Below are positions 10,534-34,837 of a stretch of 64,000 bases of DNA, in pieces (the first letter of the stretch is position 1; each line of letters starts with the position of its first letter). Source of the stretch: Amphibalanus amphitrite (taxonomy: Eukaryota); NCBI RefSeq assembly GCF_019059575.1, contig NW_024881729.1, positions 544,406-608,405 on the forward strand, in the 5' to 3' direction. The position numbers were made by a program, and so were the translations under genes. The notes under the pieces were generated by a model that did not search any database, had not been told where the DNA came from, and worked only from the letters and a program-made list of their open reading frames with translations.

Positions 10534-10785
10534 CTGGAAACGGGCAGAGCGGGATTGGCGGTCGTGGGGAGGAAGCCGGAAAATTGGTAAAATATATTAT
10601 CGAACTAACCAAGAGAGTGCAAAGATCAATGATAATTATTGGACCTTAGGGCGTTTCGCCAGTTGCCCTATGCTCCAACACCGACAGTAGCGTCAAAACC
10701 CAGTCATATAGCTTGTGTGGCGATACCACCAACACAAACGACCTCAAACAAATATGTATCTAACCCTTGTGGGGCGATCGCCCAC

Positions 10786-11677: not shown

Positions 11678-12106
11678 CTGGCGGTGCAGAAAAGTGAAAT
11701 GATAGGCTAGAATCGCTACCAGCCCGCGCCATTTAATCCACTCCACATTCTTAGGCATAGGTAACGATTTTTGCTGAACTGGAGGTGGCCAAGCTCTCCC
11801 AATTCAACTCCGGCTTGACTTTTTGAGCCATAACAGACGGTGCGGGTCAAGGTCACTGCTAGGGTCGCGGAGGATCTGTAGTGTACGGGCACCCGCAACT
11901 CAGCAGAAATCGACACTTATGTTTATAAGCATTCGCGACTCGCGGTGGTAGTCAGTTTTAGTTTCAGACAAGCACTGACCCTCGTATTATCTAAATAATA
12001 GAGCTAAGTAAGTCCATACATCAGTGTCAATCGACGCAGAAGTCACGCCCAAATCACGACTCTCTCCCCGCGCATCGTTATCTGCATCTCAGCACCCTGT
12101 ACGTAC

Positions 12107-12267
12107 CGCTGCCCTTCTGTCCCATCAGACTCCGACGCACGGCGTCCGAGCGTATAAAGGCGTCATAGAGCGCCAGTTGGCAGTCGGTGAGACGACAGGA
12201 CACCACCAGCTCCTGTTTCACCGGCAGGTACTTGGAGAGAATCGCTGCCGTGCGGCGGATGATACAC
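12107..12267 (-). CDS. RAD54L: RAD54-like, exon 8 ([28 protein letters not shown]..)
   Basis: CCCTCAG acceptor; G|GTACGT donor, phase 1. Confidence 0.8.
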
Positions 12268-12666
12268 CTGAGGGCAGCGACAGTTGCATGTCAGTCATGG
12301 TGAAAACGCTTCACTGATAGAGAAAATAAACCGGAAAATGGCTGATTGGTCGTTTGATGATTGACGGTTGATCCGATGTCAATGATCGTCGGGAAAATTG
12401 GGTAGATGCTCGAAGAGCGCCTTTTTGCTATCAGTCAACGAAATGAGCATAATACAACCCCAAAAGCCAAGCAGCTTCTGTAATTAGGATTCGATCCCAG
12501 ATATTTGTGTCAAGATGGTAAGATTACTGTGTCATAGCTACCATAACAGATGCAGAGAACTCATTTGATTTCTTTGAATAAGAATGCCTATCCTTTGAAA
12601 ACTGCTCGTAAGCCACCCCACCTAAAATATCCTTTCCTCTACCGACCGCCTCCCAGTCTCGCCCAC

Positions 12667-12803
12667 CTGTTGACGATAGACAGCAGCTCCTGGAGGCGCT
12701 CGTTGCCCTTCTTATGCTCGTCATCGGTGGCGTCAGCATCACGACCCCGCAGGATCGGCGTCTCGAACTTACGCTTAAACTCGCTCGCAGTGCCCAGAAT
12801 GCC
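12667..12803 (-). CDS. RAD54L: RAD54-like, exon 7 ([34 protein letters not shown])
   Basis: CCACAG acceptor; AG|GTGGGC donor, phase 2. Confidence 0.8.
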
Positions 12804-13053
12804 CTGTGGAGGGACGAAGAGGGTCGAGAGAGGTCGCTGTGAAAGGCTCCAACATGCGAGTGAGAATTGGAGATATCACCAGCCATATGCCGCGTCGGTC
12901 AGCCGTACTATGCTGTCGCCACTATGGTCGCCACACCCACTCACTGTCGCATTATGTTATCGCCGTTTGTTTATCGGGGTTTCGCCAAACCAAGAGCCAT
13001 CTGCTGCTCGTGACACATCAAGTGCAATATGCTGTCGCCACACCCAGCCTTAC

Positions 13054-13194
13054 CTCATTGACGAAGTGCACCAGACTGAAGTACTCGAGCAGATCGTTCT
13101 GGATGGGTGTGCCGGAGAGCAGGACACGCCGTCGGCAGTTGAGACTCATCAGTGCCGAGTACGTCTGGTTCTCGTGGTTTTTCAGACGGTGACC
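13054..13194 (-). CDS. RAD54L: RAD54-like, exon 6 ([37 protein letters not shown])
   Basis: SNF2 motifs II and III. AATAG acceptor; GAG|GTAAGG donor. Confidence 0.85.
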
Positions 13195-13445
13195 CTATTG
13201 TCAGGGAAGGGAGGAAGACACTGATCAGGCCATCATCCATCGATGTAAGACGATAAAATAAATTTGACATTTGCCACTACTACAAGAGCACCAGCCCTCT
13301 CACTAACCCACTCGACATCCCAATCTGACAATCACCAAATATCTCACCACCGTTCTCACTCCATTACAGAGTCCCAGCTCTTGCACCGACTCTCACATCC
13401 TGCCATCGACCCCTAGTCTCGCCAGTCCTCTCATCACCCTCTCAC

Positions 13446-13664
13446 CTCGTCACAGAGCACGAGTCCGATCTCTCCGCGGTGCAGCAGCGCCGCGTGGATG
13501 CGGAACGTCTCGTAGGAGATGATGAGGATGGGGTTGACGGGCCGGCGGCCGGTGCGCGTCATGAACCCCTCGAGCTGTCGGACCACCTCCGTCCGTCCGC
13601 CGCCGTCCATCGCCAGCGCCGAGACCCGGCCCGACAGCCACTTGCTGATCTCGTTGTACCAGTT
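13446..13664 (-). CDS. RAD54L: RAD54-like, exon 5 (NWYNEISKWL..ILIISYETFR..LVLCDE)
   Basis: Conserved RAD54 block ending in the DE of the DEGH box. CACCAG acceptor; GAG|GTGAGA donor. Confidence 0.85.
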
Positions 13665-13936
13665 CTGGTGGAAAACGCGGGCATAGAAAGACATCGTAAG
13701 GACATATTATGATAGGTGCAAAAACGTAATCACAACAGACTGGCATCACATTTGATACAGACGAGTCGCAAATGAAAAATGACCTGAGTTGGGCTTTCTA
13801 TAGCAAACTGACCGAAGCTCTGTTATAGGCAGAACATCTTCGAAAAGAACTAGGAACAGCCGATGAAAATCGTCACTAGCTATCTACCGGTACGTAATGC
13901 AGCATCTCGCGAGATCCACGTCGCCCTGCCACCGAC

Positions 13937-14131
13937 CTTGACCAGGCTGCTGGGTGTGACGACAATGCAGCGATCGATCTCGGGCCGGCAGTCGGGACTC
14001 TGTCGCAGCAGTGTCCACATGAGGGTGATGCACTGCAGCGTCTTGCCCAGACCCATCTCGTCGCCCATGATGCAGCCGAAGCTGCCCTCGATCCGGCGCC
14101 CGGTCACGCAGTCGTACATGAACTTGACGCC
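13937..14131 (-). CDS. RAD54L: RAD54-like, exon 4 (helicase motif I: [24 protein letters not shown])
   Basis: SNF2 ATP-binding motif almost identical to RAD54. CTCCAG acceptor; AAG|GTCGGT donor. Confidence 0.85.
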
Positions 14132-14387
14132 CTGGAGGAGACGGACAGGTGAACGTGATGCCGCGGGGATTGTTGTGAGCAGTAGGGCACGGCGATGAGC
14201 AGAAACAGATCATGCAGACAAATCCTATCATGGACAAAAGCTGACTCATGCTTTGTCACCGACGAACAGGCGGACAAACTTTATACGACCCCTAATAATT
14301 CCAGCCCTGTGAGGGATTGGGACGTAACGTACTTCCTTACAAAACCGACTCTGGGAGAGGGGGAGGAGAGAAGACAGGGCGACTCAC

Positions 14388-14457
14388 CTCCCGCTGATGG
14401 GGCCGCAGCACATTACTTAGCGCCGGATCCACCACCACGTGTACCAGCTGCTTGTCA
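14388..14457 (-). CDS. RAD54L: RAD54-like, exon 3 (DKQLVHVVVDPALSNVLRPHQRE)
   Basis: TTTCAG acceptor and GTGAGT donor. The phase joins to exon 2. Confidence 0.75.
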
Positions 14458-14772
14458 CTGAAACAGGGGGCGGGCACGCACAATTCAGCAGCAGAGTTCA
14501 GCAGTGCACATTCGGAAAAATTGCAAAACTCCAAAATGCTATCGTAAAAAAACTGGAATGAAATGATTGTATAAAAAAAGAGACAGGAAGGGTATGTGTA
14601 ACTGAATCAACGAGGTCAAAACGAGTGATTGCCCCATCACTCCAAAAGTGACTCAGGCAGAGTTAAGTACGAGTCAGCCATCAACATTCTCTTTTGAATA
14701 GGAGCTCATGACCCAGACTAGTTTCCCCTTTCCGGCTTCCCCAGCCCCGACCTCTCCCTCCCCATCACTGAC

Positions 14773-14972
14773 GCCTGCATGGTGAGCTGCTCGTGTTGGC
14801 TGAGCTGCGGCGGACTGTAGAGCACCAGCGCGCCCGGCTCGTCGGGGTCGTGCAGCGGCTGACGCGCACCCGTGCGCCGCACCCCCAGTCGGCGGTCCGC
14901 CAGTCGCGCGCCGTTGTAACTCGGGATCGGGATCTTGAACGGTCGAGACAGGATCTGACGCAGACGGGCCTC
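14773..14972 (-). CDS. RAD54L: RAD54-like, exon 2 (ILSRPFKIPIPSYNG..LHDPDEPGALVLY)
   Basis: Strong similarity to the RAD54 N-terminal region. CTCCAG acceptor; GC|GTCAGT donor, phase 2. Confidence 0.75.
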
Positions 14973-15296
14973 CTGGAGACAGAGTGGGAACATTGAGCAG
15001 TGAGAGGGCGATGTGGGGTGTCTCACCCGTCCGTTGGGACAGGATGGGTGTGTACCTTTACAGACGTCCATGCAGCAAACCGTAGCTACGGTGTGCTGCC
15101 GTGTGCTACGCGTAGCTTTGGTCCGGCGGCGCTAAACATCGCGTCCGGGACCAGTCGCCGACTCACATACGGAGAAGGGCCCGGTGGACGATTCAGATAA
15201 TCGGTGACTCACCGTGTCCCAGACACGTCAAGCAAGCGACTGACGTTTAATTAACATACGGGTTTAGTGTGTTACGGTTCCGCGAGGGCGACTCAC

Positions 15297-15521
15297 ATAG
15301 TCAGAGACGGGTCCGGTGGGCGACGCGCCGAGCGGCACGTTAATGGGCTGCAGCGGGGAGCGGACCACGGCGGCGCCATCCTCTTCCAGCGCCGGCTGCT
15401 TCCTGCCAGATGCCCGGGAGCAGGACTCGTCCGAGCGCCGCTTCAGCGCCGAGAACTGACTCGGCGCCAGACTCCGACGCTGCAGAGAGCGGGCATCGGT
15501 GTCAGCTAATACATGAAGCAT
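15297..15521 (-). CDS. RAD54L: RAD54-like, exon 1 (..RRSLAPSQFSALKRR..; true start may lie at 15521, 15554 or in an upstream exon)
   Basis: The RRSLAPSQ N-terminus is conserved with vertebrate RAD54. The GTGAGT donor (plus-strand actcac) is at 15291-15296. Confidence 0.6.
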
Positions 15522-16834
15522 AACTAAAAATGACCCTACTCTGGTATTGACCATGATTTGAATGTATATATTGCATGAGCACAGGCCACAACAGCTGTGG
15601 GGCTGATGGACTCTCTAAATTCTGAAAGACAAAAGGCTTTTGAAAGCCACACATGAAAAAGCATTTGCCATTCTCACATGCTAATATTATGAGCATGGAC
15701 TATGGAGCTGGCATTACCATCACCTGCAGTTAAAATTGATGTTATATGCATGCTTACAATCTAAGCATCACTCATTGATCCCCATCAAACAATAAATCTA
15801 GGCAGCTTTTATGATAAACAAGGTAACCTGAGAACATTCAAGGTGGTGAACATGCCTAATACAATAGTAGCAGGACAAGTAATTTTATTTACAAGAAGAA
15901 ACTTACCATTTCTAAGTGAATATATCAAGTAGCAACTGGTGCAAAATACAGAAGTTCTAGTGTATCTAACACAGCAATTTGAATTCTTTCTTCCTCTTAC
16001 ATTAATCTTATCCATTCAATTATTGCACCTCAGCTTGACATCCTCTAAGAATGAAATGCCACAAGTTATCTGCAAATGCAATTAAAATAATGCCTTAGTC
16101 TTGCACACATGAAAATGTGCAGCATTTAGAAGAAAGCAGATAATCATAAAAAGATAATAAGCACCCAACAAATGGCTGGATCATGACTGGGTCACATAAA
16201 AGCAAATAGAAATACCTAGCTTTACTTTATAAACTTTTAGCACTTTTTTGGGACAGAACCAAAGCAAAAGGGCACCAAGAATTAAGTAAAAAAAAAACCT
16301 GTGACATTGGAACAAACACAGTGTCAATATCAATCAATATTTGGTCATCACAAGTCAAAACTGTTGAGCCCCATGATTGTGATTGAGTGTTATCACCTGG
16401 CTATCTGTATCAGGCCATCTGTTTATTTCTTTCAGCATATATACTTAATACTGCACAAAGGTCGACCTTTGTCTCTTAGATCCTTGGATCCTCTTAGATC
16501 TCTTAGATCAAGATCCCTTGTCAAACTTAGATCCTGTTATCTAAGTTGAAATGCCTACTCTCCCTTGACTAATGCACTGATCAATTTGGGATGATTGGAT
16601 TGTAATTTAATAATGCTAATCAAATTCATTCATTTTGAAAAATGTGATGCAACTAGGGCTTATCTTATGATCTTATCCAAACAACGCGGCTATTTGCCTT
16701 GTCTTGGTCTCGAGATAGGAATAGGTATAGGTATAGGTTCAGTGGACTAGGATTAGACGATGGTCTATTTGATGTCCACATCGGTCATGGGTGGAGGCAA
16801 TTACTCAGGAATGGTTGATTGTCATGATCATATG

Positions 16835-17117
16835 CAGGGCTGCGGAGTCGGAGTCGGAGTCGGAGTCGGTCGGAGTCGACAGTTGTGACCAGAGTCGGAG
16901 TCGGAGTCGGAGTCGATTTTAGAAACCCGAGCCGGAGTCGGAGTCACCGAAAATCTGTCGACTCCGCAGCCCTGCTAGGTCTGCAGAGTCGGAGTTGGGA
17001 GTTGGAGTCGGTCGGAGTTGACAATTCTGCCCGGAGTCGGAGTCGGAGTCGGAGCTGGTTTTTGAAAGCCGGAGTCGGAGTCGGAGTCGCCGAAAATCCA
17101 TCGACTCCGCAGCCCTG
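16835..17117. mobile_element. Two adjacent palindromic MITE-like units (16835-16974 and 16981-17117) of the same family, (GGAGTC)n arrays between CAGGGCTGCGGAGTCG TIRs
   Basis: Unit 1 starts CAGGGCTGCGGAGTCGGAGTCGG and ends CGACTCCGCAGCCCTG. Unit 2 is a near-duplicate. Confidence 0.55.
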
Positions 17118-17998
17118 ATCATATGTCATCACAGAAACAGCTTAAAGCCTTTGCTGAAGGTACTAGGCACATAAATAACATAGCACAATAACAATAATAT
17201 AAGAAAGGATACAGATCAATAACTATATCAATATAGTGCATTTATTATCAACAAATTACACAATTGCAAATATCAAAATGTGTGTGTTGTGTGCGCATCC
17301 TCAGCGGGAAAATTTATACGACCATGGCGCATTAGTTTAGAAATCGCGCCAATCACGATAATATAAGCCTTTGTAAATGACGTATTACTTAAAAGTTATT
17401 TCTTTGGAAAGTTAAAAATCATGGAATAGATATGCTTTGCTTTGCTTATTTTGCCAAAAAGAGCTTGGTTTATGATATCTTATGCTTAATTGTTTAAAAA
17501 ACGTTGAAATGGCAAAGGTAGCAAGGCAAATGAGATGTTTAAGGATCAGCATGCATTTTTTTAAAACTGTTATCAATTTAAGCCTGCCTACAGTTTTAAA
17601 TTTTTCTTAAGAAGTCAAATATTTTAGTCAGCTTTAAATCAACTTTATCGTTTATATAGCCTCGATGCTGTTTACACAGTCTTGTACCAAACTCTATGTG
17701 ACGTCATATCAGATCAAAACAAGATCGAGCCTATGACGTCATATTTATTCTGTAGTTTATTTGGAACACTGCATTGTATTCGGCCCTGAGCGCTCACACA
17801 TTTTTTGTCTTTTCAAAGAGAGAAAAAAGAGTGGGAGGGGACGTACTAGACACTGCCGGATATTTATATTTTCCATTAAATATGCATAATGCATTAATGG
17901 TGTTTTCCCTCATTTCGTCTTTGTTTTCTTCGACGAAATAACGATGACGACGGAGGCTGACTGCTGAGGCGTCCTACACTCGCTCTGCGGCTGGTGAG

Positions 17999-18093
17999 TA
18001 GATATCAGTTGGGCAAACTAGGCGGCGGGAATCAAAATATGGAGGCATCAAAATATTGATTCTAGTGGGCGGAGCTTTGACCATATATGGGCA
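17999..18093 (+). repeat. 95-bp perfect inverted repeat, left copy; partner at 21508-21602; contains the palindromic 18-mer GAATCAAAATATTGATTC
   Basis: ATATCAGTTGGGCAAACTAGGCGGCGGGAATCAAAATATGGAGGCATCAAAATATTGATTCTAGTGGGCGGAGCTTTGACCATATATGGGCATA recurs as its reverse complement 3.5 kb downstream. Further GAATCAATATTTTGATTC-like motifs lie at 18240-18360. Confidence 0.85.
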
Positions 18094-18539
18094 TACGTGC
18101 AGACCATCACAGAAACGTCAATTCTTCAGCAACCGGCTATAATTTCAAGATAGTTTCTTCACAAAATGTAGAACAACGTTGAAGCTACCCGCCAGGCACG
18201 AAACAATAGCCCTAACCTCTTCGGTTAGTTTAGGAAAGCGTCTTGAAAATAATCAAGATATTGATTCATCACGGCGGCTAATCCCGGCGAGAATCAATAT
18301 TTTGATTCCGCAAACAGCTGGCTAATCATTATTTTGATTCTGAAATCAGCTGGTTTATCAATATATTGATTCTGCGAACTGACTTTCTGCAGACGTACTT
18401 CACTCTTCAAATTGACTTATGGAATGTTTCTTGTGTGCAAATAATGCAAATTCAATAAATTCATGAAGATATTATCAGCACAGGATCGTGTAATTTTTTC
18501 TAGACCTTATTCCCACGGTAGACCAGGGATTTTCAGCAC

Positions 18540-18739
18540 TCACCCTAGCTCCCTGCTCAAAGCTGCAAGCCTTCGAGGGAATGCGTCAAGGGAGCCGTGC
18601 TGACCTTTGTATAGGGGTTGTACTGAGTCGGAGCCGGAACCGAAGCCCGACCATTTTACTCGGAGCCGGAGCCGGAGCTGGAGCCGATTTTTCCTCCGGA
18701 GCCGAAGCCGTCTAACATTTTCACGACTCCACATCCCTG
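18540..18739 (-). repeat. Inverted partial copy of the GGCTCC-array element (compare 392-565)
   Basis: The reverse complement begins GCAGGGATGTGGAGTCG..(GGCTCC)n..GAGTAAAATGGTCGGGCTTCGG..TACTCAGTACAACCCCTATACAA. Confidence 0.6.
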
Positions 18740-21507
18740 CTTTGTAGCATTGATTTTGAGTAAAAAAAAGTTCACTTATCGTCTTTCACGTGTTCATGAA
18801 TGTGTTTCTACGCATCTGTATCCCGTCCCATTTCTGTGGAGTACAGTAAGAGATATTTCGCCGAACAATATACTCCTCAAGCCCGTTGCACAAATTGCAC
18901 AATTTGAATGAAAATATGATACACGGATGTATTTGCAGTCGCAAATAATACGATGATATTCATAACACATTTCACAACGATCCCTGCAATTGCCACACAT
19001 TTGCCATCACAAAGCCCTGTCGTTGATGCTCACATCCCATGCAAAGCAATACTCACTTTTAGGACACGTCTCTTATTCAATATGGCTACGTATTTGCAAA
19101 ACATGCAGTTAATAATATTTAAAACTGAGACCTAACCAATAAGACATACCGTGGACAGGTAAGAAAAAACAAATAAACTTCTGGAGAATGACTTCAACGT
19201 CTCGATGTTGCCTAATTACAAAGAGCAATTTCCGGTTTCGAATCAAATACATGAAATAAATATAAACAAAATTTGTACAGATACACTCAATATAGGGTTT
19301 ATGATTAGCACGGCTACCTAACACATCAATCCTGTCAGGTTGAGCCACTTATGTCCACACCCAAAGCAGGTCGCTTTGGAACATCACAAGATTCCATATT
19401 ACCACCGAAAACGGTCACCAATTGGTCTACGGATCAGCATCTTCAGAACATTCTCGACCGAAAAACTATCAGTCCTGCCTGTGTTTTGGTTCGCTTCATT
19501 TGGGCTATGCACACGTTTTTCTACTCCGGTTCTAGGGACGAGATAGCAGTCATCACGCGCTGCACCAGCTCGTTCTTTGACAGGTTGGTGACGCTGTCGT
19601 CATCCGGCAGGATAAACACGTGGCGCATTTCACCCTCGGCCCCGCCAGCCACATACACACTTCCTCACGTCATATTGTTTCTCGCCACGAGATCAAAGTT
19701 CAAAAAGTCGTGATGTAGGTAGTCTCCACCCAGCCCGAGTCAGGTACTCCACCGGTTGGTCGGGTGCGGCCAGGTCCGCGCAACGCCGCCCTACTTCGGT
19801 CGACGCTCTGGTTGACAGGGATGGCGTTGTCATACAGTTGCCTGTCGACTGAACAGCGATTCAAGACGCCATCCTTGACCCTCTGAAGCCAATCCCCGCA
19901 ACGACCAGTGTTTGATCATTGGTTGACCTGCAGCAAACAACAGAACACAATAATTAGGACATTTGTGGACAATAAATTAGGAAACTATATGTGTTATTAT
20001 TCTACTTGTTCAGCAACTATTAATTTTAGAATATATTCAATAAAAAATTAATTAAAAAATTAAATAATGTCACTTAAATTTCCACTGAACGCCACCAGGT
20101 GCGCCAACAACTGTCATCTCATGCAGTTATATAAATTCTGCCAAAAAAGTATATCTGAGGCCAGTTGTACCAACAGAAAAATAGGTGGCTGCTGGATTTT
20201 TTTTTTGTCTAAAAGTTACTTCACATACAGAGCATGAACGGTACAGCCTTATCCGTTTACGTGCCCATCATGTTAACGCTCCATATGTGAAGCAGTCTTT
20301 GGGCAAAAAAATTCCAGCAGGCAGCTATTTGTGTCGATAAAACTGGCCTCTATAATTAACTTTGGCATGGACAATCCTGAAAATTAACTATCCAGCATTC
20401 CCTGGACTGACATACATTAGACGCATAATTTTCTTGAAGACTACGCATAATGTAAATATGGCTTACACCATTCAGCAACTTGCTTTTGTTACACTTAAAA
20501 TAAGCATCATTAAATATGTAGCAAAAATGGGCGAAGCAATTACAAGCCAAGCATACATACCTACTATTTAAATAAGGCAAACACCAACATGCACTAAGAC
20601 CTTTCAATCTTAAATCGGAACAAGTCAATAACCTAGTTGCCCTTAAAAAATTTAAATGCTACAAATTAAAGTTGTAGCAACAATTGGGTGAGTGAGACAC
20701 AAGCAGAGGCTAAAACATCCAAATTATGTAAAATACTGGACATGCACTGCCCCCATTTCATGAGTCCACCCAACAATTCTATCATGTGAGACAAAACATC
20801 AGGCTTCTTGTAACTAATTTATACCGTAACTTTTAAAGGACATCATATTTCACTGAAATACTACACCTAAGACATCATTTTCGAAAAAATATAGCTTAAA
20901 AAGACAATAGAAGAGTGAGAAGGCGTCCCGCGCCGCTGATGTCGCTACCGCGCCATGTTCCTAAAACCATCTCTTAAAACGAGTTTTTGGTAAGAAACGT
21001 TAAGATCACATGCCTGAAATTGAAAAACACACTTCAAAGTATCTTAAAATATGATCCATTGTTACTTACACTTCAGAAAAGGTCGCTTAAACAAAATAAA
21101 ACCGGGAGCACTACGTTGCATCCAAACACCCACGACGCCGGCGCGAAATGGCGGGAACCGGAAATCGTGGCTAGATACAAAGAAAAAGAATATTTCTTAT
21201 AAATGAATTATACAACTAAATAACGCATTTTTCATTTTCTTTTAGACAAAATTATGAAAAAAATACAAAGGCTCGTCGTTAATGATAAACAGAGCAAGTT
21301 TTAACAGCACGTTTTTGTTGAATTATGGCGGCGAAATCTTTATGCCATTCGTAAAGGTACGCGCGACAAACGGCTGATAGCCATGCAGCGAAAAATTGAA
21401 GCGGGGAAGTTTTTTGTGTTGACTTGTCAAAAAATCTCGCCGTCATGGGGGTTTTTTCCGCCGTAACGGGTCGTCTGAAGGTGGGAATGTCCCAAATTGA
21501 ATCAAAA

Positions 21508-21602
21508 TATTGATTCTATGCCCATATATGGTCAAAGCTCCGCCCACTAGAATCAATATTTTGATGCCTCCATATTTTGATTCCCGCCGCCTAGTTTGCC
21601 CA
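21508..21602 (-). repeat. 95-bp inverted repeat, right copy
   Basis: Perfect reverse complement of 17999-18093. Confidence 0.85.
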
Positions 21603-21779
21603 ACTGATATGGCGATTGGCGTCTATTTCAATTTTGATTTTAACCAATGACATTTTCAGTGTTAAGTGTGAATTGATAATTGTGGGCACACACTATTAAA
21701 TGTGAAGATGAAGTCCAAGTAGATAAAAATCTAACGACTGGTCAGAGGTGCTGACGTATCCTAGCATTTTCGGTACCTA

Positions 21780-24700
21780 TCGGTAAAGCTGGCGTCACCG
21801 TCGGCGGTAGGTAGGTAGGTTATGTTGTGGGTTCAGTAGGTGGAACTATGGTCATGAGTACCCAAATATAGGAACGTTCCCATTTTTGGGAACGGAGTTC
21901 CCAAATATGGGAACGGGCGTTCCCATTTATGAGAACGGAAGTTAATTTTTCGGCCGTTCGCCCACTAAAACTCATTAGTGCATCACGTCTCAAAAAAGTG
22001 CACGCTAATTTAAGTATCTACTAAGTCGATTCCAGGACAAATCTTCGTATGGCATTTCTTCGTCGCGCAATTCTTCGTCCGCATTTCTTCGTCCGCAAAT
22101 CTTCGTCGGCGCATTTATTCGTGTCGCATAACTTCGTCTCGCATTTCTTAGTAAGCGCAAATATTCGTAGCGCATTTTTTCGTATCCGCATTTCTTCGTA
22201 CGCGCATTTCTTCGTCAAGCATTTTTTCGTCCACGCATTTCTTCGTCTACGCAAATCTTCGTCCGCATTTCTTCGTCCACGCAAATCTTCGTCTGCGCAT
22301 ATCTTCGTCCGCAAATCTTCGTCCCCGCAAATCTTCGTCCGCAAATCTTCGTCCACATTTTTTCGTCCACGCATTTCTTCGTCTACGCAAATCTTCGTCC
22401 GCATTTCTTCGTCCACGCAAATCTTCGTCCCGGCAAATCTTCGTCCGCAAATCTTCGTCCGCAAAACTTCGTCCGCAAATCTTCGTCTGCAAATCTTCGT
22501 CCGCATTTTTCGTCCACGCATTTCTTCGTCCACGCAAATCTTCGTCCGCAAATCTTTGTCTGCGCATATTTTCGTCCGCAAACCTTTGTCTCCGCTATCT
22601 TCGTCTCCGCAAACATTCGTCCACAAATGTGGTTCAATAAAACCATGAAGAAATATCAGACCATCAAGTGATTGACGAATTTAATGCATGGAATGGATGA
22701 TCGAAACTTTTGAAGTCAGGTAGATGAGGTCTGTCAGGTGAAGCTATTGTATTTGGGAGCCGAGAATTGAAACATTCCATATCATTTGTGTCCCGGACAT
22801 TCTTTTTTCGCGGTCGATGAATGACAATACAATCTCTTGTACCCTCGCCGGCATAGGCGGCGGAACGGGGAGGGCACCGGGGCACCGTTCCCCTCTTTAA
22901 TTTGGCCTTTTAACAGTAGCCCTATGGGCGTTGCATGGAAAGAATGGGACTAAAAGTCGGCAGTGCCAAGCCCCCCCCCCCCCCTAATTGAATGTGTTCC
23001 GCCGCTACTGCTCGCCGGACCTATTTGTTTTCTACATATACGCCGGCCGAGGGGGGGGGGGCGGGCACGACCCCCCCCCCCTTCCCCCCATCGCCGTTTC
23101 GCCACTGGTGGAGCTAGCGCGTCGCGGAAAAAAACGAGCGTGTGCGCCGTTACGAGACGCAGAGATTAATACCCGATTTTAAGGCCTTCTAGGTCAGGGG
23201 TCGGCTTACGGCCCGCGGGCCGGATCCGGCCAGGAGGGTGACGGTTCGATCCGGCCCGCGACCATCTGACGTCCGGCCCGCGGCTGGTATCATCGACTTA
23301 CATCGTGTTCCGGCCCGCGGTTCCTTCAGAAATCGACTCCGATATAAAAGTGACTTAAATGTGCTTTGGCACAATAGTTCTTCCTTCGCACACTTCATGA
23401 GTTTATAAACACCATTTGCGGGTGTTTTTGTCTAATTCTACTTCTAGACAAAACTTGCGCGGGCCGGACGTCAGATGGTCGCGGGCCGGATCCAACCGTC
23501 ACCCTCCTGGCCGGATCCGGCCCGCGGGCTGTAAGCCGACCCCTGACCTAGAAGGCCTTAAAATCGGGTATTAACCTCTGCGTCTCGTAACGGCGCACAC
23601 GCTCGTTTTTTCCGCGACGCGCTAGCTCCACCAGTGGCGAAACGGCGATGGGGGGGGGGGGGGTCGTACCCGCCCCCCTCGGCCGGCGTATATGTAGAAA
23701 ACAAATAGGTCCGGCGAGCAGTAGCGGCGGAACACATTCAATTAGGGGGGGGGGGGGCACGGCACTGCCGACTTTTAGTCCCATTCTTTCCATGCAACGC
23801 CCATAGGGCTACTGTTAAAAGGCCAAAATTAAAGAGGGGAACGGTGCCCCGGTGCCCTCCCCGTTCCGCCGCCTATGCCGGCGAGGGTACAAGAGATTGT
23901 ATTGTCATTCATCGACCGCGAAAAAAGAATGTCCGGGACACATGATATGGAATGTTTCAATTCTCGGCTCCCAAATACAATAGCTTCACCGGACAGACCC
24001 CATCTACCTGACTTCAAAAGTTTCGATCATCCATTCCATGCATTAAATTCGTCAATCACTTGATGGTCTGATATTTCTTCATGGTTTTATTGAACCACAT
24101 TTGTGGACGAATGTTTGCGGAGACGAAGATAGCGGAGACAAAGGTTTGCGGACGAAAATATGCGCAGACAAAGATTTGCGGACGAAGATTTGCGTGGACG
24201 AAGAAATGCGTGGACGAAAAATGCGGACGAAGATTTGCGGACGAAGATTTGCGGACGAAGTTTGGCGGACGAAGATTTGCGGACGAAGATTTGCCGGGAC
24301 GAAGATTTGCTGGACGAAGAAATGCGGACGAAGATTTGCGTAGACGAAGAAATGCGTGGACGAAAAAATGCGGACGAAGATTTGCGGACGAAGATTTGCG
24401 GGGACGAAGATTTGCGGACGAAGATATGCGCAGACGAAGATTTGCGTGGACGAAGAAATGCGGACGAAGATTTGCGTAGACGAAGAAATGCGTGGACGAA
24501 AAAATGCTTGACGAAGAAATGCGCGTACGAAGAAATGCGGATACGAAAAAATGCGCTACGAATATTTGCGCTTACGAAGAAATGCGAGACGAAGTTATGC
24601 GACACGAATAAATGCGCCGACGAAGATTTGCGGACGAAGAAATGCGGACGAGGAATTGCGCGACGAAGAATTGCCATACGAAGATTTGTCCGGTTACGTA

Positions 24701-26600
24701 CTAAGTCTCTATAAAATTATCTTTAATCTGACCGTTGCACAAGGAAATTGACCGTCGAATGATATTTTTAATGATTTTTTGAAATGACGGAATGGTGAAA
24801 ACATGGGTTATACTACATTTAACTTGCAATTTTAAGGAAAATGAAGCGTTTTTTACATTTTGAGGTCAAGTACAATAATTTTCGCCTGGTTATGAAGTTT
24901 CATACTAGCGACACCAGATGCTGACATATGCAAGCGAACACGCGGACAGTCCCGAGGTAATATTGTTGACTTTTGGTGTCGGGGCGCACGACCGCGTGGA
25001 ACGTCAGTGATTTTACCGAACTACTGTTGTAAACTCGGTTTCAGTGGTTTAAAATTATTCAGCTGTATTTTATCATCCCGGAAAGACATATTTTATTTGG
25101 ATGCTAGCTGTTAAAGGGACCCTCCCACCTTTAAAAAAGTTTATGAATTGGCATGAAAGTGATGTCGCTCGGTTCAGAAAGAGCGAAAACGAATATCTAC
25201 CAAATTTCACCGAAAAATATTCACCGGTTTTGAAGATATTAGACTTTTACTTTTGTTTACTTTTTGGGATCTCCGCTGTTCCTAGCGACTTTATTTAAAA
25301 GTGCGGCATTTGTTGCGCGCAACGCAGCATATACCACCGCGTGCTACAAAACGTTTTAGTCAAACATTTAACGGACGTTCGAAAGCCTGATGACGTCATC
25401 AGATTTAAGTGCCTATACCAATACATTGTGGCACTTATTTGCACAGATGTCAAAATCAAACTCAAATTTCTTTGCGATGAAGTAATTGCTGGAGAAACGG
25501 TTTTCACGGCACTGATTTTCAAAGAACGTCCATCAAGATGGCTATCTCAACTCAAATCTAATGTTAAGGTGGGACAGTCCCTTTAAGCGTTGTTTTATAA
25601 GGAGCGTCATGAGCGTGATTTTTGTCTTCCGTGTTTCTAAGCACGATCGTTTTGGGGGAATTTCTCTTATATAGGTCGCTTTGTGTGGCTTATTTATAAT
25701 TTTTATGCTGATCTCGATCATTCCTCGTGCCCATCCTACCAGGCCTTTTGCCACTTACACCCATCAAGAAAGGAAAAAACTAGATTTTCATTGGGACTAG
25801 GTGTTTTGAGGGTGTAACATATTCAGCGTTCCCATTTTTGGATACTTCCTTGTGCTCGTCAACTATCGGTGATAAACAGACAGGTGCTTGACATGTCTCC
25901 ACCCTCGGCGCGGACGGTGGATATAGGTATGGAAGACCTTGTTGAACATCGCTGAGCGTTGTGAACTACGTAATCCTGCAGAGGGGGGCGTGCCCGCTGC
26001 GAGATCGACGGGAATAAAAGCGCAGAAGACCGGGCGTAACATGCGACGGTCTTGCCGGAAAGGTCATCTGATGATTGTTGCGTTAACAATAATTTGCGGC
26101 GTTGGACGTGATGCTTGTTAATGAAAAGAGCCCCTGAAAGGCGTCGGTGAAATCGTTCCCAATTTTGGGTACGCCGTTCCCATAATAAGGAACGCTTGCA
26201 GCGCCAGTGTACGAGAGCGTTCCCAAATTTGGGCTCGCGGCCCGGATGATGGACTGCTTTAGAAATAGGGGAACGATTTGAAACTACGATGGGCCTTACA
26301 ATATCAAACTCTTTCCCAACAATATTGGGACAAATATCAGGCGGTTCACGATCGTTTTTTTTTTTTTTTGGACGTCATTTAACGGTTCTTTTTCTTGTTT
26401 TAAATAATGCCTACATGGCGTTCCCATATTTGGGTTTATCGTTCCCAAACATGGGAACGAAAATGCGTTCCCGAAAATGGGTACGCTTGACCATAGTTCC
26501 GCCTACTGGGTTTGTAGGTTGTAGGCTGGTTGGTTCAAAGTGTGTAGGCTGGTAGGTTGTAGGTAAGTAGGTAAGGCTAGGTCAGGTTAGATTATGTGTT
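21780..26600. mobile_element. Candidate larger element enclosing the foldback. Long inverted termini (about 21795-21960 versus 26400-26560) are built from palindromic GTTCCCAnnnnTGGGAAC motifs and carry (GTAGGT)n at the outer ends
   Basis: Left GGGTTCAGTAGGTGGAACTATGGTCATGAGTACCCAAATATAGGAACGTTCCCATTTTTGGGAACG.. matches the reverse complement of right ..CGTTCCCAAACATGGGAACG..GACCATAGTTCCGCCTACTGGGTTTG. More motif copies lie at 25831-25850 and 26140-26235. Confidence 0.4.
22038..24692. mobile_element. Foldback-type element: a 2.65-kb near-perfect palindrome whose arms begin with tandem arrays (about 600 bp) of a degenerate 14-18-bp unit (CTTCGTCCGCAAAT-like), followed by inner unique sequence and a second, smaller palindrome around the centre (about 23190-23560)
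   Basis: The left arm 22038-23390 is the reverse complement of the right arm 23410-24692. The track ORFs 22021..22626 and 24087..24677, and their antisense partners, are simply translations of the arrays. Confidence 0.7.
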
Positions 26601-26625
26601 TTACTCTAACTTCATCTACACATTT

Positions 26626-27600
26626 AGCTGTTAGTGGTGATGGTGGGGCTCTGTCCTGGGGCCCTTACTCTTCCTGGTGTATATCAATATTAATAGTGTG
26701 GCGTCCACCCTCAAGTGCCAATACAAAATTTTCACTGACGACCTCAAGATTTACGCATGCGTGAATCATACACGACTGTCTGAGACGCCAGCGGTATCCC
26801 ACCAATGTGTCCAGGATGACATCAACTCACTCCACGACACTGCTCTATCTTGGGGTCTTCATATGAATGTCTCAAAATGTGCAGTCCTTAGTTTTTCTAG
26901 GAGGCGCAATAGCGATGCTCCAGCTTACTTCTTGAATGGCAGAGAAATCCCTCGGGCCAATTCAGCTAAAGATTTGGGAGTCACGGTCGATACTGATTTG
27001 AAATTTCACACCCATATTCAAAACGTGTGCCACAAAGCTGGCGGTCTTGCTCAGAACTTTCTCAGATCAACGGTAAGCCGCTCTCCGGAGTTTATGTTGT
27101 TTTTGCTCAAAACACACATCCGACCTATCTTAGACTATTGTTCAAGCCTTTGGAACACAGGTTACCTGCAGGACCTCCGGCTACTGGAAAGGGTGCAGCG
27201 ACGCTGGACTAAACGGATCTCTGGACTTGAAACTCTCAGTTATGCTAATCGTCTCCAGTCATTGCAATTGTACTCTGTCCAGGGCAGACTGAAGCGGGCC
27301 GATCTTCTCCTGTGCTGGAAAATCTTCCATGGACAGTCCTTCATCTCTCCAGATGATCTTTTCCTTACCACTCCCTTGAACCGCACCAGAGGCCATAGTT
27401 TCAAGATTCATCGCACACACGGTAACACGTCCACCAGACAACGTTTTTTCTCAGTGAGGGTGATTGATACGTGGAACTCGCTGCCAGATTATGTGGTGAA
27501 TGCCCAAAGTATACAGAACTTTAAAAAAATGTTGGATGCCTGCATTCCAGATGTACTGTTTTCTTACGTTGACTGAATCATGCCATGTTGTGACTATGTA
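26626..27600 (+). mobile_element. 5'-truncated LINE fragment (CR1/L2/RTE-like RT C-terminal half)
   Basis: ..LGPLLFLVYIN.., FTDDLKIY, KCAVLSF, LGVTVDTDLKF, LERVQRRWTKRISGL..SYANRL, and a C-terminal WNSLPDYVV..SIQNFKKMLD. Stop at 27576. Confidence 0.7.
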
Positions 27601-30128
27601 CACACATTGTTTTCTTTTGTAATTGTGTAACCTAACAATGTAACTAGGCATAACTCCAGAAAGCCTGACAATGTTTTGGTAATAATGTCACCGGAGGCGC
27701 ACTATACCAGTCATTCTCTTAGCGAATGTTAACATGTGCATTGTTTCCGTTGATGACTGGCGCGTCTCGAGCAGTGTGGGTTCCTCATTTCCTCTCTGAC
27801 TGTCCTTTGAAACCACTCCAAAGATATGCAGGAACCAACGAGAAGAGTAAACGAGGTGAGGGTGACGCCAGCTTTACCGATACCGCATTTTCATTGTGAT
27901 TCATGGTTAATTGGGCTGTTCTGTTGACCACTCTCCAGGGCCCGGGCAGACTGCACCTGCACTGCAAAGTGAGACAACAGAGACAATGACACTCACAAGC
28001 TCATTCGACAAATCTGCACCAGCCCATGCCAAACACCAGAAAGCCACACCAGGCTGTACCCAACAGGACCCATTAATTTTTGCCCCCAAATGCACGAGAT
28101 ATATGCACTTATGATATCAAAACTAGTGCTGCAGAGTTGGAGTCAGAGTCATCAACTGCAGGGTCAGGGATGGCCGCTAGGGGCCGGGGTCTGAGTCAGT
28201 TGGAGTCAGCAGTTTTGCTTTTGCCCAGAGTCAGAGTAAGAGTTTTTGATCTATAATTGATCATTAGAGCCCTACCAATTTTGGAAAAGTGATGCCCGTG
28301 GGCGTGAATGTGCAAGGACAGCAGTTCAGTATAGTGGCACATTGGGGCCAGCTGTACAGCTCCAAGCAAAATCCACACTCCAACATTGGAAATCAGCACA
28401 GCACCATGCACCACCTGTTTGCCTGTGCACTGACAAGATCCTATTAACAATTAACATTGCCATGCTTTGCAGTCTGGATCTGCAGTGCACTGATTAATCT
28501 AAAGTGTATCCTCACACTGTCAATTGCCAATGTCCCTGCTGAACATAGCCCTTATCCCTTACCCTGCCAGCACCCAGCATGCATAATATCACAGCAAGTA
28601 CTGGTTTACACACTGGGGCTCAATGGTATTGGCATTGGTGCACTTGACTCATGAATGCTGACAAGTGACACTAGACAGTTTCATGGCTTCCTGCCAGTGG
28701 GGCAGATTTTGGGGATCCTGTCAGAGTGGAAGATAGCTCTAGTGTAGGGCACTGATTATGTGGAAGCTGATCAAGACCCAAATGGGTCAAGACCCAAATG
28801 GGTTTGTTCTGGTTAGGCATGTAAATCCTCTCTCACATTCCATTTTGGGTGTCCAGCATGAATATGATCATACTGTTTAGCTTCTTTGCCTGGTACTACT
28901 CGAAACTGCAGCCAGCTAGCCGATATCGCCGAAATCGGCTGGGGCTGCTCGGTGGACTCTGCACCGATGGAGCGTTTGGCTCCGTCCTCGCCTCCCGGCC
29001 GCGTATTCGCCAGAAATGGCGTCTCCAATGGTGGGGTGAGGCGTCGCGCGATGCTTTCATAGGAACGGAGCGCTCGCGCGATCCAAAAAGCGAATGTGAA
29101 CAAACCGGGCTGTCACCCGTTGAGCTCAACGCTCCACCAACTGAGCTGCGGGACTGACGTGATTTGAGAAAAAGTATCTGATGCGGGGACGCGATTGGGT
29201 CCTGTTGTCTGCTTCCTGCAATGGGATCTCATTTATCGCTCCTTTAAAAAAAATGAATTTCATATTTTCTCAGAAAGCCCCAAACCTACGAACTCCAATG
29301 TTCAATAGGCGGAGGACGAATAACTTGCCCCGGTGTCGTTGGGGTCAGGTCAGGCCTCAGGGTGGAACGAATGACGTGTGCTGGCTCGGGGACAGGTGGG
29401 ATGGGACGAATGACGCGCCCCAATACTGGCGGGCTTGGACGACTGACGTGTCCCGGGATCGGCTTGGTGGGCCATCATTCAAAGACCAGCAGTATTGCGT
29501 GCGACAGCCTGTAGAGACTAAGATTAGCCATGATAAAAATCAGTTAATGGACCACCCTGCCGGGCTGAAAAAAAATTAACACTTGACTCTTAAGCTTTAG
29601 CTTTGTTATTGATTGTAATATCCTTTTCAGGGAGAGTGTGAACCATCTGGAGATCAACATTCCAGCTGACTGAGGGTGACGATGGCGGTCAACTCAACTC
29701 ACCAAGACCGTAATGTAAGTTTTGTGGTTTTGTGAATGCAGTAATAATTGTTTTGTTGTCTTTCACTATCATATTTTATAAATTGATCCATGCATTTGCA
29801 CTTTTCTCGTTTTGTGAACGACAATTCATTTATACTGCATACTCTGGATTTTTCAAAATGTGGTTTGAGGTTATTCCTCTCACATATGACCAGGAGTTCC
29901 ATTCTGCTTTCAGTGTGAACTTTTTGTAAAAGTCAAACTTAACCCATTCTTCTGCTAATTTTCAAAATTTAATTGCAGTGACTGGCCATAATGAATTAAT
30001 ATTACATACAAATTGCATGTCACTGCCGTTCAGGCAGGATGGTGCCAGGCCAATCTGTGCAGTAGGCAGTGAAGCTGGCTCATCCTCAGTAGCCTATTTA
30101 CCATTCAGTTCCATGTCCCCGCCTCCAG

Positions 30129-30296
30129 GGTATTGGGGTGCACCGAAGTCTGCAGCGGACCAACTCTGCGCCCAAGGTTGCCATTCCGTTCGTGGTGGCC
30201 GGTGGCCGGCGCCTCGTGAAGGAGCTCCACATCAACTACAACATGCGCGAGGTGCTGGCCGTGCTGGCTGGCGACCTCAACTACCATCCGGATGAT
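30129..30296 (+). CDS. UBL/IQ-domain gene (IQUB-like), first identifiable coding exon (..NSAPKVAIPFVVAGGRRLVKELHINYNMREVLAVLAGDLNYHPDD)
   Basis: CTCCAG acceptor and GTGAGT donor, phase 0. Upstream exons were not identified. Confidence 0.5.
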
Positions 30297-31864: not shown

Positions 31865-32301
31865 GTGAGAGCGGCGCCGCGCTGGGTCTTGCACTGGCGG
31901 CATGCTCACAAACAGTATTACAGCCATGGTGTGGGATTTTGGAAATTATAACTAGCTTCGCTATGTTTAACCATTCATAAACAATCAAGTACCCTCACAT
32001 ATTTCGCTTAGCTTGTAAAAATAATTTATTTTGACACTTGACAGTGGTCTGGTCCATATCAGCGACAATCTGTGCCTCTCGCTGATATGCCGTGCCCCCC
32101 CCCCCCCCCCCACACGCACCAACAGTCTTCCCCTCGCCCTCACAGGTAGTCGTTCCTCACAAGCACTGGCGTCGCTGGCTGGCCCGTGTGACTGTCTCCC
32201 CGCGTCTGACTATGCTCCCGCTGTCTCTGCAGGCGATCGTTCTGCAGAAGTACTGGCGTCGTTTGTTGGGCTGTGTGTCTCTCCCACAGACAGGCCCCAA
32301 T

Positions 32302-34073
32302 CCGACGACCAAATCCGACACCTCGGGACGAAGAAGGCGCCAGGACCGGACCGGGTATGCACCGAACACCTGCGGCACTTCGGACCGACGGCCTACCGGA
32401 CCCTTCTGGCACTCATCAACAGATCGTGGTCCAACCTCGAGACGCCCGCCTCATGGCGACGGGCGACCATCATCCCTATCTTTAAGGCCGGCAAAGACCC
32501 CAAACAAGTGGGCAGCTACCGCCCGATCGCGCTCACGAGTCACATCGCCAAGCTAGCGGAGCGGATGATCGCGGCCCGGACGACCTACCTCATCGAGCGA
32601 GACCGACTGGTGCCCCCCGAACAGGTCGGGTTCCGCCGCGGGAGGTCGGCGGAGGACAGTCTGGCCCGCTTGGTCCAAACGGTTCAAGATGGCTGGAATC
32701 GCCCCAAGCCGAGACGAGGCCCGGAGGATGGCGTGACGGCGGACCGCTTTGTCCTCCTGGCGTTCGACTTCTCCCGTGCCTATGACACGATCGATCACCG
32801 GATGTTGCACCTGAAGCTCCTCAAGCTCCTCCCCAGATGTCTCGCGACCTGGAAATTCCGGTTCCTTCGCGGCAGGCGGGCCCGCGTAGAGGTCAACGGC
32901 GCGCACAGCAGCGAGCGCGTGTTCCGCGCGGGCCTGCCGCAGGGCTCGGTCCTGGCACCGACCATCTACACGCTCTGGGCGGCGGACCTTATCGAGACCC
33001 TGCGGAACGCCTCGGACCGCACGGACGTCCTGATGTATGCGGACGACAGGGCCACACTGAGCGCTGGAGCCACCGTAGAGCTTGCGGTGGCTCGCGCCCA
33101 GAAGTCGGCCGACGCCCTGGCCCGATGGGCAAGGCACTGGAAGATGTCCATCGCCGGACAGAAGACCCAGGCGCTGCTGCTGACTCAGCGGAGCAGGGAC
33201 GAGCGCGGCGTGCAACTCCTGGCGAACGGCACGCAGGTCACCGGTGGCACCAGCCTACATCTTCTGGGGGTGACCTTCGACAGACTTCTACACTTTAAAG
33301 ACCACTGCGACTCTCTGCTGCGGCGGAAGGTCCGGCCGCGGACGGCACAGCTGCGGAGGATGACCGGCCGGGCCTGGGGTCTCCGCGAGGCGCAGCTCAG
33401 GACAGTCGCGAACGGGTATGTCCGGGGAGCCCTTGAATACGCAGCGGGTGCCTGGCTCCCGGCCGCGTCCCCGTCACACGTTCAGCTGGTGGAGCGCGAG
33501 CTGCTGGCGGCAGCCCGGGTGGTGACCGGATGCCCAAGGTCCACCCCCAGGGATCCCCTGCTGGCCGAGGCTGGCATCCCTTCAGCATGGTCCACCAGGA
33601 AGACGCTGGCCGCGCGAACGCTCTGCCGAGCGCTCGCCCTGCCGGAGGACGACCCTCTTCGCCGCGTCGCGGAGGCCGACCCACCCACTCGACTGCGGTC
33701 TACCACCGGCTGGCGACAACTGGGGCGATCGGCGCTGATCGAGGCGGGCGCCGAGGGAGTGACGGTGGAGCCGCGCCTCGAGGTTCCCCTCCTCCCGTGG
33801 ACAACCTGCCGCCCGATCGCCTTCAATCTGGACGTGGGACCCGGCGGTCGTCGAGCCTCCTCCAACGAGACGCGACGAGAGGCCGCGCGGCAGCACCTGG
33901 CGGCGCTCCCAGCCCAGGCCACGTGGATTTGGTCCGACGGCTCTGCGGACGCTGGGGTCAGGCGAGGCGAGGGGGCGGCGCCATCATCTTTACCGCGTCG
34001 GGGGAGACTCTCGAGGTTGAGGTGGTGGCGGGAGACCTCTGCTCCAGCACCCGTGCGGAGCTGTTCGCCCTGA
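32302..34073 (+). pseudogene. LINE RT-domain reading frame (frameshifted relative to the downstream RNase H/CCHC part at 33957-34801)
   Basis: The two overlapping track ORFs (680 aa and 423 aa) together cover RT, RNase H and the zinc finger. Confidence 0.6.
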
Positions 34074-34837
34074 GGGCGGCGCTGGAGCGGGTCCGGGATG
34101 AGCCGTCCCCCGCCCCGCTGGTGGCGTGCTCTGACTCACGAGCCGCCCTGAGCCTCCTCAGCGCGGGAGCGGCCGCCCAGACCTCCACTTTCGGCGCGGC
34201 GATCTGGAGGACGCTGCTGGACATTGCCGAGCGCCGGCAGGTGACCCTGCAGTGGGTCCCTGCTCACTGCGGGCTGGCGGAGAACGAGCGCGCTGACGCC
34301 CTGGCCAAGCAAGCGGCCACCCTGCCCCAGGGCGCCGTGCCCTCGGACGCTCGGCCCCTGACACGGGCAGTTCATCGGACGACCACACGTCAGTGGCGCG
34401 AAAACTGGCCCGACTCCTTTTTCAAGGCTATCTTCGGGAGCACCCTGCCGCTCCCCATCCCCGGAGAGGACCGAGAGGCCGCCATCTCGGTGCACCAGTG
34501 GAGGGTGGGCCACTGGGGCCGCTCGCTCCAATACCTGCACCGGATCGGCCGCCACCCCTCCGTGGCATGCCTGCAGTGCCCCGATAAGCGGTGCCCCACG
34601 GCGCTCTGCGCCGTGTGCCGGGAAGAGGCGGACGTGCCGGAGCACGTGTTGCTCCGCTGCCCGGCCCTCGCTGGCGCCCGCCTGCGGCTAACTGGCAGCA
34701 TTCACGTCGACCCGTCGCGGCTGCGGGACGCCGACCTGGTGGCTGCCTTGGAGGCCGGCTACCTTCGCCATAGGGAGCCTCTCGGCTATGGTCCTCCGTA
34801 AGGAGGTCCCAGGGGGAACAACAACAACAACAACAAT
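32302..34837 (+). mobile_element. 5'-truncated non-LTR retrotransposon (LINE) with RT, RNase H and a C-terminal CCHC; I/R1/LOA-type domain order; frameshifted
   Basis: RT motifs KAPGPD, FDFSRAYDTIDH and YADD. The RNase H block (TRAELFALRAALE) is in a different frame after a roughly 1-nt indel near 33960-33980. CCHC is CLQCPDKRCP..C..C. A (CAA)6 tail sits at 34819-34836. A 10-bp target-site duplication AGGCCCCAAT lies at 32292-32301 and 34838-34847. Confidence 0.75.

Follow-up and report, generated by a model that had tools for sequence, protein, structure and literature searches.

In the barnacle Amphibalanus amphitrite, a long and nearly perfect palindrome lies in the interval that separates RAD54L from IQUB, two divergent genes, and the question is whether it is a genuine mobile element and, if so, what kind of transposase moved it. 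The interval is part of a stretch of 64,000 nucleotides from contig NW_024881729.1 (assembly GCF_019059575.1), which is referred to below as the window and to which the coordinates refer unless another contig is named. An earlier note, which was made from the sequence alone, had described a foldback-type transposable element with tandem-repeat arms, and this description is supported by an exact 9-bp target-site duplication, a family that is spread over several loci and a second contig of the species that carries the same structure. That the element is a genuine non-autonomous foldback transposon can be regarded as very probable. Its mobilisation by a transposase of the Mutator/Phantom type, which is proposed by analogy, is favoured with less confidence because foldback shapes have arisen by convergence and the search for a transposase found none. 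Blending these two judgements gives an overall confidence of roughly 0.8.

Architecture and boundaries of the element

The element spans positions 22028-24698 (2,671 bp) and consists mostly of two inverted arms of 1,255 and 1,241 bp. When the left arm was aligned globally with the reverse-complemented right arm, the alignment ran unbroken from 22035 to 23282 against 24691 back to 23458. If the outermost 7 bp of each end are set aside, 14 substitutions (1.1%) and 16 gap columns separate the arms, the latter mainly in runs of poly-C and poly-G, which gives an identity of 97% when gaps are counted and 98.9% at the aligned bases. The near-perfect palindrome that the earlier note had placed at 22038-24692 is therefore real with regard to the similarity of its arms, but its boundaries had to be moved and its middle, a spacer of 175 bp with 42% GC, is not palindromic and remained unaligned between the arms. 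The repeat finder reported colinear arm pairs of 396, 373, 125, 108, 88 and 154 nt, among others, with a complementarity of 93-99%. The pair of 154 nt corresponds to the smaller palindrome that the note had placed at the centre; it is not a separate structure but the inner end of these arms, and it was listed apart because homopolymer indels break the ungapped extension. This stretch holds the short local palindromes GGCCCGCGGGCC and CCGGATCCGG.

The outer ~595 bp of each arm are a tandem array for which Tandem Repeats Finder (TRF) gave periods of 14, 16, 30 and 46. Parsing that was anchored on CTTCGT resolved 39 units per arm, each of 13-16 bp and of the form CTTCGT-N2-4-GCA-WWT (repeat unit GCAWWTCTTCGTNN, also written as GCAWWTCTTCGT). 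Both methods confirm the degenerate array that had been predicted, although the range of 14-18 bp that had been given for its unit was too high. The commonest 14-mer, GCAAATCTTCGTCC, allowing at most one mismatch, has 30 sites in the window, all 30 of which fall within the element, while 0.03 would be expected by chance. Further inwards, each arm continues with unique sequence, as had been predicted, though over ~655 bp and not ~550 bp; it has 56% GC, contains C/G homopolymer runs and a recurring CCGGCCCGCG motif. Thus, very long terminal inverted repeats form most of the element, and its arms combine short tandem subrepeats with outer, inner and middle modules, both of which are features by which foldback elements are recognised. 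In the predicted DNA fold of positions 22640-24085 (1,446 nt), the arms pair fully with a calculated energy of -888.6 kcal/mol and the spacer forms only small local hairpins. In principle, an inverted repeat of 1.25 kb can be extruded as a hairpin or cruciform and thereby favour rearrangement; no such consequence was observed here.

The element is non-coding, as had been proposed. None of its open reading frames (ORFs) had a Pfam match, no transfer RNA was found, and Rfam returned nothing for the whole window at the gathering threshold or for the element at E values up to 1, which includes the lack of a histone stem-loop like the one present in Tm1-HH. The ORFs of ~200 amino acids that are present in at least four frames are a read-through of the repeat unit, which has no stop codons.

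At the outer junctions, whose analysis the earlier note had recommended, an exact 9-bp direct repeat, TACTAAGTC, flanks the element on both sides as expected for a target-site duplication. The arrays of the related elements described below all stop at a common terminus, which lies 7 nt past GGACAAATCTTCG, and the flanks beyond it are unrelated; in an alignment of 11 ends, the first ~50 nt were nearly invariant with the terminal consensus NNTNNNNGGACAAATCTTCGTNNNGCATTTCTTCGTNNCGCAAATCTTCGT. Because this terminus is conserved at other loci, the boundaries at 22028 and 24698 are fixed without any freedom of choice, and therefore the probability that the nine flanking positions match by chance is about 4^-9 (~4e-6). 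Two more complete elements are flanked by repeats that agree at 7 of 8 positions (L021/L016, one insertion in two contigs) and at 7 of 9 (L014). With lengths of 9 bp in the window, 8 bp in L021/L016 and 9 bp in L014, the duplications lie within the range of the Phantom/Foldback branch of Mutator, which is 8-10 bp with 9 bp as the typical length (PMC3169594, PMC6446971). The terminal 7 bp are not inverted copies of each other but belong to two classes. Class 1 comprises CGTAACC (window), CGTTACC (L005), CGTGTCC (L012, L016 and L021), CGTGTTC (right end of L014) and CATTCCC (L006), while class 2 comprises GATTCCA (window), GATTCTA or GGTTCTA (L014, L019, L020, L022, L026 and L013) and also CGTTCTA. 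Each complete element (window, L014 and L021/L016) has one end of each class. In the window, both motifs are followed by the same trinucleotide, i.e., GATTCCA|GGA and CGTAACC|GGA, and then by the ~14-bp tandem repeats, which is the end layout of the nematode element Tm1. The parts of the element are listed in the table.

Table. Parts of the foldback element and its flanking duplications in the window.
Feature	Position	Strand	Evidence
Left 9-bp target-site duplication TACTAAGTC	22019-22027		9/9 identical to 24699-24707
Left asymmetric 7-bp terminal motif GATTCCA (class 2)	22028-22034	+	5/7 positions not complementary to the right end
Left outer arm: GGA + CAAATCTTCG, then ~39 tandem units	22035-22628	+	TRF, unit parsing, conserved first ~50 nt in 11 ends
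Left inner arm, unique sequence	22629-23282	+	Continuous alignment with 24098-23458
Middle domain, 175-bp loop	23283-23457		Unaligned between the arms; small local hairpins in the predicted fold
Right inner arm, inverted copy of 22629-23282	23458-24098	-	Repeat finder and arm alignment
Right outer arm, inverted array ending ...CGAAGATTTG-TCC	24099-24691	-	TRF, 14-mer sites, arm alignment
Right asymmetric 7-bp motif GGTTACG on the + strand, CGTAACC inward (class 1)	24692-24698	-	Class recurs at the ends of relatives
Right 9-bp target-site duplication TACTAAGTC	24699-24707		9/9 identical to the left copy

A second contig and a dispersed family

Long-read assembly is known to produce long, nearly perfect palindromes in error, and the noise in homopolymer length points to error-prone long reads as the source of this sequence. 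An artefact, such as a chimeric or collapsed inverted duplication that originated from a palindromic read with a missed adapter, was the scenario that the earlier note had named as its refutation. It was not borne out by a second contig of A. amphitrite, VIIS01000581.1 of assembly GCA_009805615.1 (L027), which aligns to window positions 1-29586. In this contig, the element occupies the corresponding locus with 99.83% identity over 3.6 kb, and across 2.8 kb the two differ only by six single-base differences in homopolymer length; since nothing but homopolymer lengths differs, all of the substitutions between the arms are reproduced. The surroundings are less similar: the adjacent 10 kb are 98.6% and a further 5 kb 93.7% identical, and an insertion of 3.6 kb in the window is missing from the second contig. 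Because of these differences (1.4-6% and the insertion), the two contigs represent different haplotypes or individuals. Additionally, 60 bp of the window (25213-25272) are missing from the second contig in a region that is otherwise 99.8-99.98% identical. Further observations speak against an artefact: 14 substitutions and several indels distinguish the arms, the spacer between them is not palindromic, the outermost 7 bp of the two ends differ in the manner typical of the family, an exact duplication flanks the element and related foldbacks occur in unrelated datasets. In view of the target-site duplication, the multi-locus family and the second contig, we consider the probability of an artefact to be close to negligible.

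The relatives were found using the translated array (22021-22626, minus strand) as a query against the ORFs of a protein collection, which gave 10 matches in ENA, and using a pattern scan of Joint Genome Institute (JGI) contigs for two adjacent units, which gave 17 loci. In blastn, arrays of the element's unit were present in the contigs of the ENA matches (L003-L009) at 75-82% identity, and 12 of the 17 JGI loci matched the element. L017, L018, L023 and L024 were discarded as chance matches, being either GC-rich and bacterial-looking or AT-rich. The 50-bp terminus together with arrays was found between unrelated flanks in L003, L005, L006, L007-9, L012-L014, L016/L021 and L022/L026, as would be expected of a dispersed family; in the case of L012, a small element, the contig stops 5 nt past its end. 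The outermost units of the element in the window match those of L003 unit by unit and in the same order. In L005, a foldback of 1.55 kb, an array of 20-bp units takes the place of the unique inner sequence, and L021, L016 and L014 are compact foldbacks of 173-793 bp that have both arms. Moreover, L016 (782-1315, 534 bp) and L021 (997-1789, 793 bp) are copies of one insertion with identical flanks and ends and a different array length, which indicates that a tandem array expanded or contracted within one locus. These inner arrays, compact forms and differences in array length among the relatives characterise the family as modular and heterogeneous in the manner of foldback elements. In both L005 (5014-6058) and L006 (5496-6078), the inner arm is a second tandem array of the 20-bp unit CCGTCCCTCGGCCCTGACC. 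As judged from these sequences, the family swaps its inner modules and keeps the outer repeats and the terminus.

The same comparison bears on the idea that the structure is an immobile local inverted duplication, for example one that arose through template switching at a replication fork and took in a minisatellite, and not a transposon at all. Its inner domain and middle were found at no other locus compared and the structure is present on both of the haplotypes, as such an origin would predict. On the other hand, the exact 9-bp flanks stand at a terminus that is conserved in at least eight independent insertions whose flanks are unrelated, L003 has the outermost units in the same order, and the orthologous interval of Pollicipes pollicipes, which is too diverged to align outside of the exons, has no such sequence and no trace of the repeat unit in 28 kb. 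A local duplication is thus highly improbable. An origin of the inner domain from a nested insertion was also considered and rejected, because the palindrome is unbroken across the junction between the array and the inner domain, where an insertion that came later and duplicated its target would have interrupted it.

Known foldback systems and the possible mode of movement

Among the described elements, the closest in layout is Tm1 of the nematode Meloidogyne. Gross and Williamson (2011, PMC3169594) reported 9-bp duplications, asymmetric 7-bp motifs (A1 and A2), the motif B GGA and a 13-15-bp motif C, and showed that the autonomous member encodes a FLYWCH and Mutator-like element (MULE; Phantom) transposase. 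The barnacle element shares with Tm1 the 9-bp duplications, the asymmetric ends that are not inverted, the GGA just inside of them and arms that consist largely of ~14-bp tandem units; both families also include non-coding derivatives that resemble miniature inverted-repeat transposable elements (MITEs), and their repeat number varies between copies. The motifs themselves differ, with CGGTTAA/CCTACCC and CGATTCAGTATCCGC in Tm1 and CGTAACC/GATTCCA and GCAWWTCTTCGTNN in the barnacle element. When they were compared by eye, only GGA and the layout were shared, and the repeat units could not be convincingly aligned. The GA-rich motif D is absent from the barnacle element, whose much longer arms of 1.25 kb contain a 655-bp unique inner domain, whereas whole Tm1 elements measure ~1-2.6 kb, and a Phantom-encoding autonomous copy is known for Tm1 but was not found among the loci of the barnacle family. 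For the Phantom family, Crustacea are listed as hosts and the duplications measure 8-10 bp (PMC6446971).

Muta1 of Aedes aegypti, a MULE of the Phantom group that was described as a 'type 2 foldback', offers a functional model. Its purified transposase binds the terminal motif, while additional subterminal repeats increase the binding, are required for cleavage and raise excision, during which the flanking DNA forms hairpins (PMC5499845). Both elements have a terminal motif followed by subterminal tandem repeats, whose binding was shown for Muta1 and would apply to the barnacle element by analogy; Muta1, however, is autonomous and has short arms (145 bp with nine repeats). Like the barnacle element, Tetris of Drosophila virilis is a foldback that is non-autonomous; it is divided into flanking, outer, inner and middle domains, has duplications of 8-10 bp, and was placed in Mutator on the grounds of structure and duplication alone (PMC4079207). 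Its repeats of ~220 bp seeded a satellite, whereas no satellite expansion was seen for the barnacle element. FB of Drosophila melanogaster resembles the barnacle element in its long arms of short tandem subrepeats, its 9-bp duplication and its mostly non-coding copies, but there is no detectable similarity in sequence and the hosts are an insect and a crustacean. Unlike those of the barnacle element, the arms of FB are made up of repeats throughout (units of 10, 20 and 31 bp) and have hardly any unique inner part, if any. The TU elements of sea urchins (Liebermann et al. 1983, cited in PMC4079207) reportedly form a heterogeneous family with outer tandem repeats of ~15 bp, a non-repetitive inner arm, a middle segment, swapped modules and 8-bp duplications. 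The outer, inner and middle plan of the barnacle element and the exchange of modules in L005 and L006 resemble those of TU; this likeness is one of structure, and the hosts belong to different phyla.

Other transposases, such as those of the P/Galileo, hAT or Merlin type, could have mobilised an element whose shape had converged on the same form. Merlin elements make duplications of 8-9 bp and hAT elements of 8 bp, which would leave room for them, although the length for hAT also counts against it. Galileo duplications are 7 bp and do not agree with the 9 bp found here or with the 8-9 bp of the two other copies. The foldback shape has evolved repeatedly (PMC3169594; for Galileo, PMC3688188), and neither the window nor the related loci yielded a transposase, both of which speak for another enzyme. 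Nevertheless, the combination of asymmetric 7-bp ends, GGA and ~14-bp units is that of Tm1, which has a Phantom MULE transposase, and Crustacea are listed as Phantom hosts, so a different superfamily is unlikely. Mobilisation by a Mutator/Phantom transposase remains our preferred reading. In the literature, some Foldback elements are grouped with the Mutator superfamily (PMC4079207, PMC3169594).

Several points weigh against this reading. The assignment to the superfamily draws solely on the length of the duplication and the architecture of the ends because no ORF with a FLYWCH or MULE domain was found in the window or in the related loci compared. More generally, Pfam searches of the long ORFs of the window returned only retroelement domains, and inspection of the ORFs of L003-L026 revealed no transposase. 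The foldback architecture also arose independently in the P superfamily (Galileo) and in Tc1/mariner (Mcmar) (PMC3169594). As for the transposon itself, there is no copy of the inner domain elsewhere in the window or in any related locus compared, the relatives come from marine metagenome or JGI contigs and not from the A. amphitrite genome, and there is no empty allele among the two A. amphitrite contigs as both carry the insertion.

Under the Mutator/Phantom reading, the element would be a class II cut-and-paste element that depends on a DDE transposase acting in trans, which would belong to the Phantom/Foldback branch of the Mutator superfamily and be encoded elsewhere in the genome. Following the example of Muta1, this transposase would recognise the terminal motif and bind cooperatively to the subterminal repeats, and the 39 units per arm may represent multiple binding sites for it (PMC5499845). 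The element would be excised by double-strand breaks that leave hairpins on the adjacent DNA, its ends would be joined to staggered cuts 9 bp apart, and repair would then create the TACTAAGTC duplication. The near-identical arms probably result from either an inverted duplication of one arm or a conversion within the element. A bolder version of this reading would see in the element a still-active, undescribed crustacean lineage of Phantom/Foldback, whose Tm1-like ends go back to an ancient mode of recognition in Ecdysozoa or to horizontal transfer, and which acts as a source of small interfering RNA (siRNA) from its hairpin or as a fragile site. The 98.9% similarity of the arms, the variation of the array between L016 and L021, the polymorphic DNA transposon next to the element and the short JGI contigs, which are possibly transcripts, are all compatible with it, yet we consider it rather improbable.

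Foldback elements have long been known in animals and plants (PMC4079207, PMC3169594, PMC5499845), while no description of them in barnacles was found in the literature search. The barnacle element is a new family of a known class, since the foldback features were all present where they were tested, yet its motifs cannot be aligned to those published for Tm1 beyond GGA and no paper on barnacle foldbacks was found. The earlier note had called the presence of the palindrome notable in itself, which overstates the case; because foldback elements are a long-known class, the interest is modest. Biologically, the presence of the element is unremarkable; it is an ordinary copy of a non-autonomous transposon.

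The RAD54L-IQUB interval and other features of the window

The element is located between RAD54L on the minus strand (exons at ~9200-15130) and IQUB on the plus strand. The concatenated RAD54L exons were 98% identical to the RAD54-like protein of A. amphitrite, 90% to that of Pollicipes pollicipes and at most 71% to all others. In Pollicipes (L028), the two genes are divergent neighbours as well; they are annotated ~1 kb apart, and the interval between the first conserved exons is ~3 kb (L028 8234-11239) compared to ~15 kb in the window (14987-30162). The added part holds a 3.6-kb element with terminal inverted repeats, the foldback element and a 311-aa ORF (26641-27573) that is unannotated and has no Pfam match but looks like a reverse transcriptase by eye.

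This position between two divergent genes, together with the predicted hairpin of 1.25 kb, leads to the suggestion that the transposon relic was additionally co-opted, either as a hairpin RNA locus (a source of siRNA or PIWI-interacting RNA) or as a regulatory or insulating element of RAD54L and IQUB. The element is the same on both haplotypes even though the DNA nearby differs by 1.4-6%, and its relatives in short JGI contigs are candidate transcripts. However, the element is not conserved beyond the species, as Pollicipes lacks it, and the identity of the haplotypes runs ~5 kb past its end and thus reflects local haplotype sharing and not a constraint on the element. We therefore regard co-option as very unlikely.

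The 3.6-kb element (18006-21605) lies 420 bp to the left of the foldback element, is non-coding and is absent from the second A. amphitrite contig, whose empty site reads GTAGATATGGCG. It has perfect 94-nt terminal inverted repeats (18002-18095 and 21517-21610, CAGTTGGGCAAACTAGGCGG...) and a target duplication of TA or ATAT. It is a recently mobile DNA transposon that is polymorphic for its insertion, and possibly it is Tc1/mariner-like. Closer to the foldback element, ~90 bp to its left and outside of it, there are three copies of a partly palindromic 21-22-bp unit, GTTCCCATTTATGGGAACGG(A) (21875-21939), which are shared with the second contig. Within the IQUB region, ORFs with ~66% GC at 32025-34800 have RVT_1 and RNase H domains, and one gene model there in the public annotation of the second contig has both RVT_1 and IQUB matches, which suggests a chimeric gene call.

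The window also contains an intact BEL/Pao long terminal repeat (LTR) retrotransposon and further reverse-transcriptase fragments. The BEL/Pao element (39084-45288) is bounded by 237-bp LTRs (TG...CA), which show 100% identity, and by a 5-bp target duplication (GGCAG). Its single gag-pol ORF of 1,852 amino acids is encoded on the minus strand and contains the domains Peptidase_A17, RVT_1, rve and DUF5641; this copy looks very young. Homologues of the polyprotein were found only in marine metagenomes, at up to 78% identity, and in Sycon at 36%; the closest relative (78%) is in a contig of the Tara metagenome. At 49069-51713, a unit of ~1.35 kb is duplicated in tandem, the copies being ~75-88% identical. 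A GC-rich stretch at 55883-56392 has two interleaved pairs of inverted repeats, 55883-55971/56179-56267 (94%) and 56016-56135/56273-56392 (88%), which may be two small palindromic MITE-like elements. At the other side of the window, an ORF of 1,180 amino acids (3538-7080) with 70% GC and low complexity had only a sub-threshold TFIIA-like Pfam match; it corresponds to a gene in the second contig that is annotated with 758 amino acids and has no Pfam domains.

With the element described here, a crustacean family, from a barnacle, is added to the foldback transposons, and the Tm1-type layout of the ends is not limited to nematodes but reaches crustaceans. The analysis also documents a long palindrome as genuine sequence and not as a mis-assembly. 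In Amphibalanus, the RAD54L-IQUB interval is enlarged to ~15 kb from the ~1-3 kb of Pollicipes, with several transposon-like sequences in the added part. The conserved 50-bp terminus of the family provides a probe for an autonomous Phantom-like partner.

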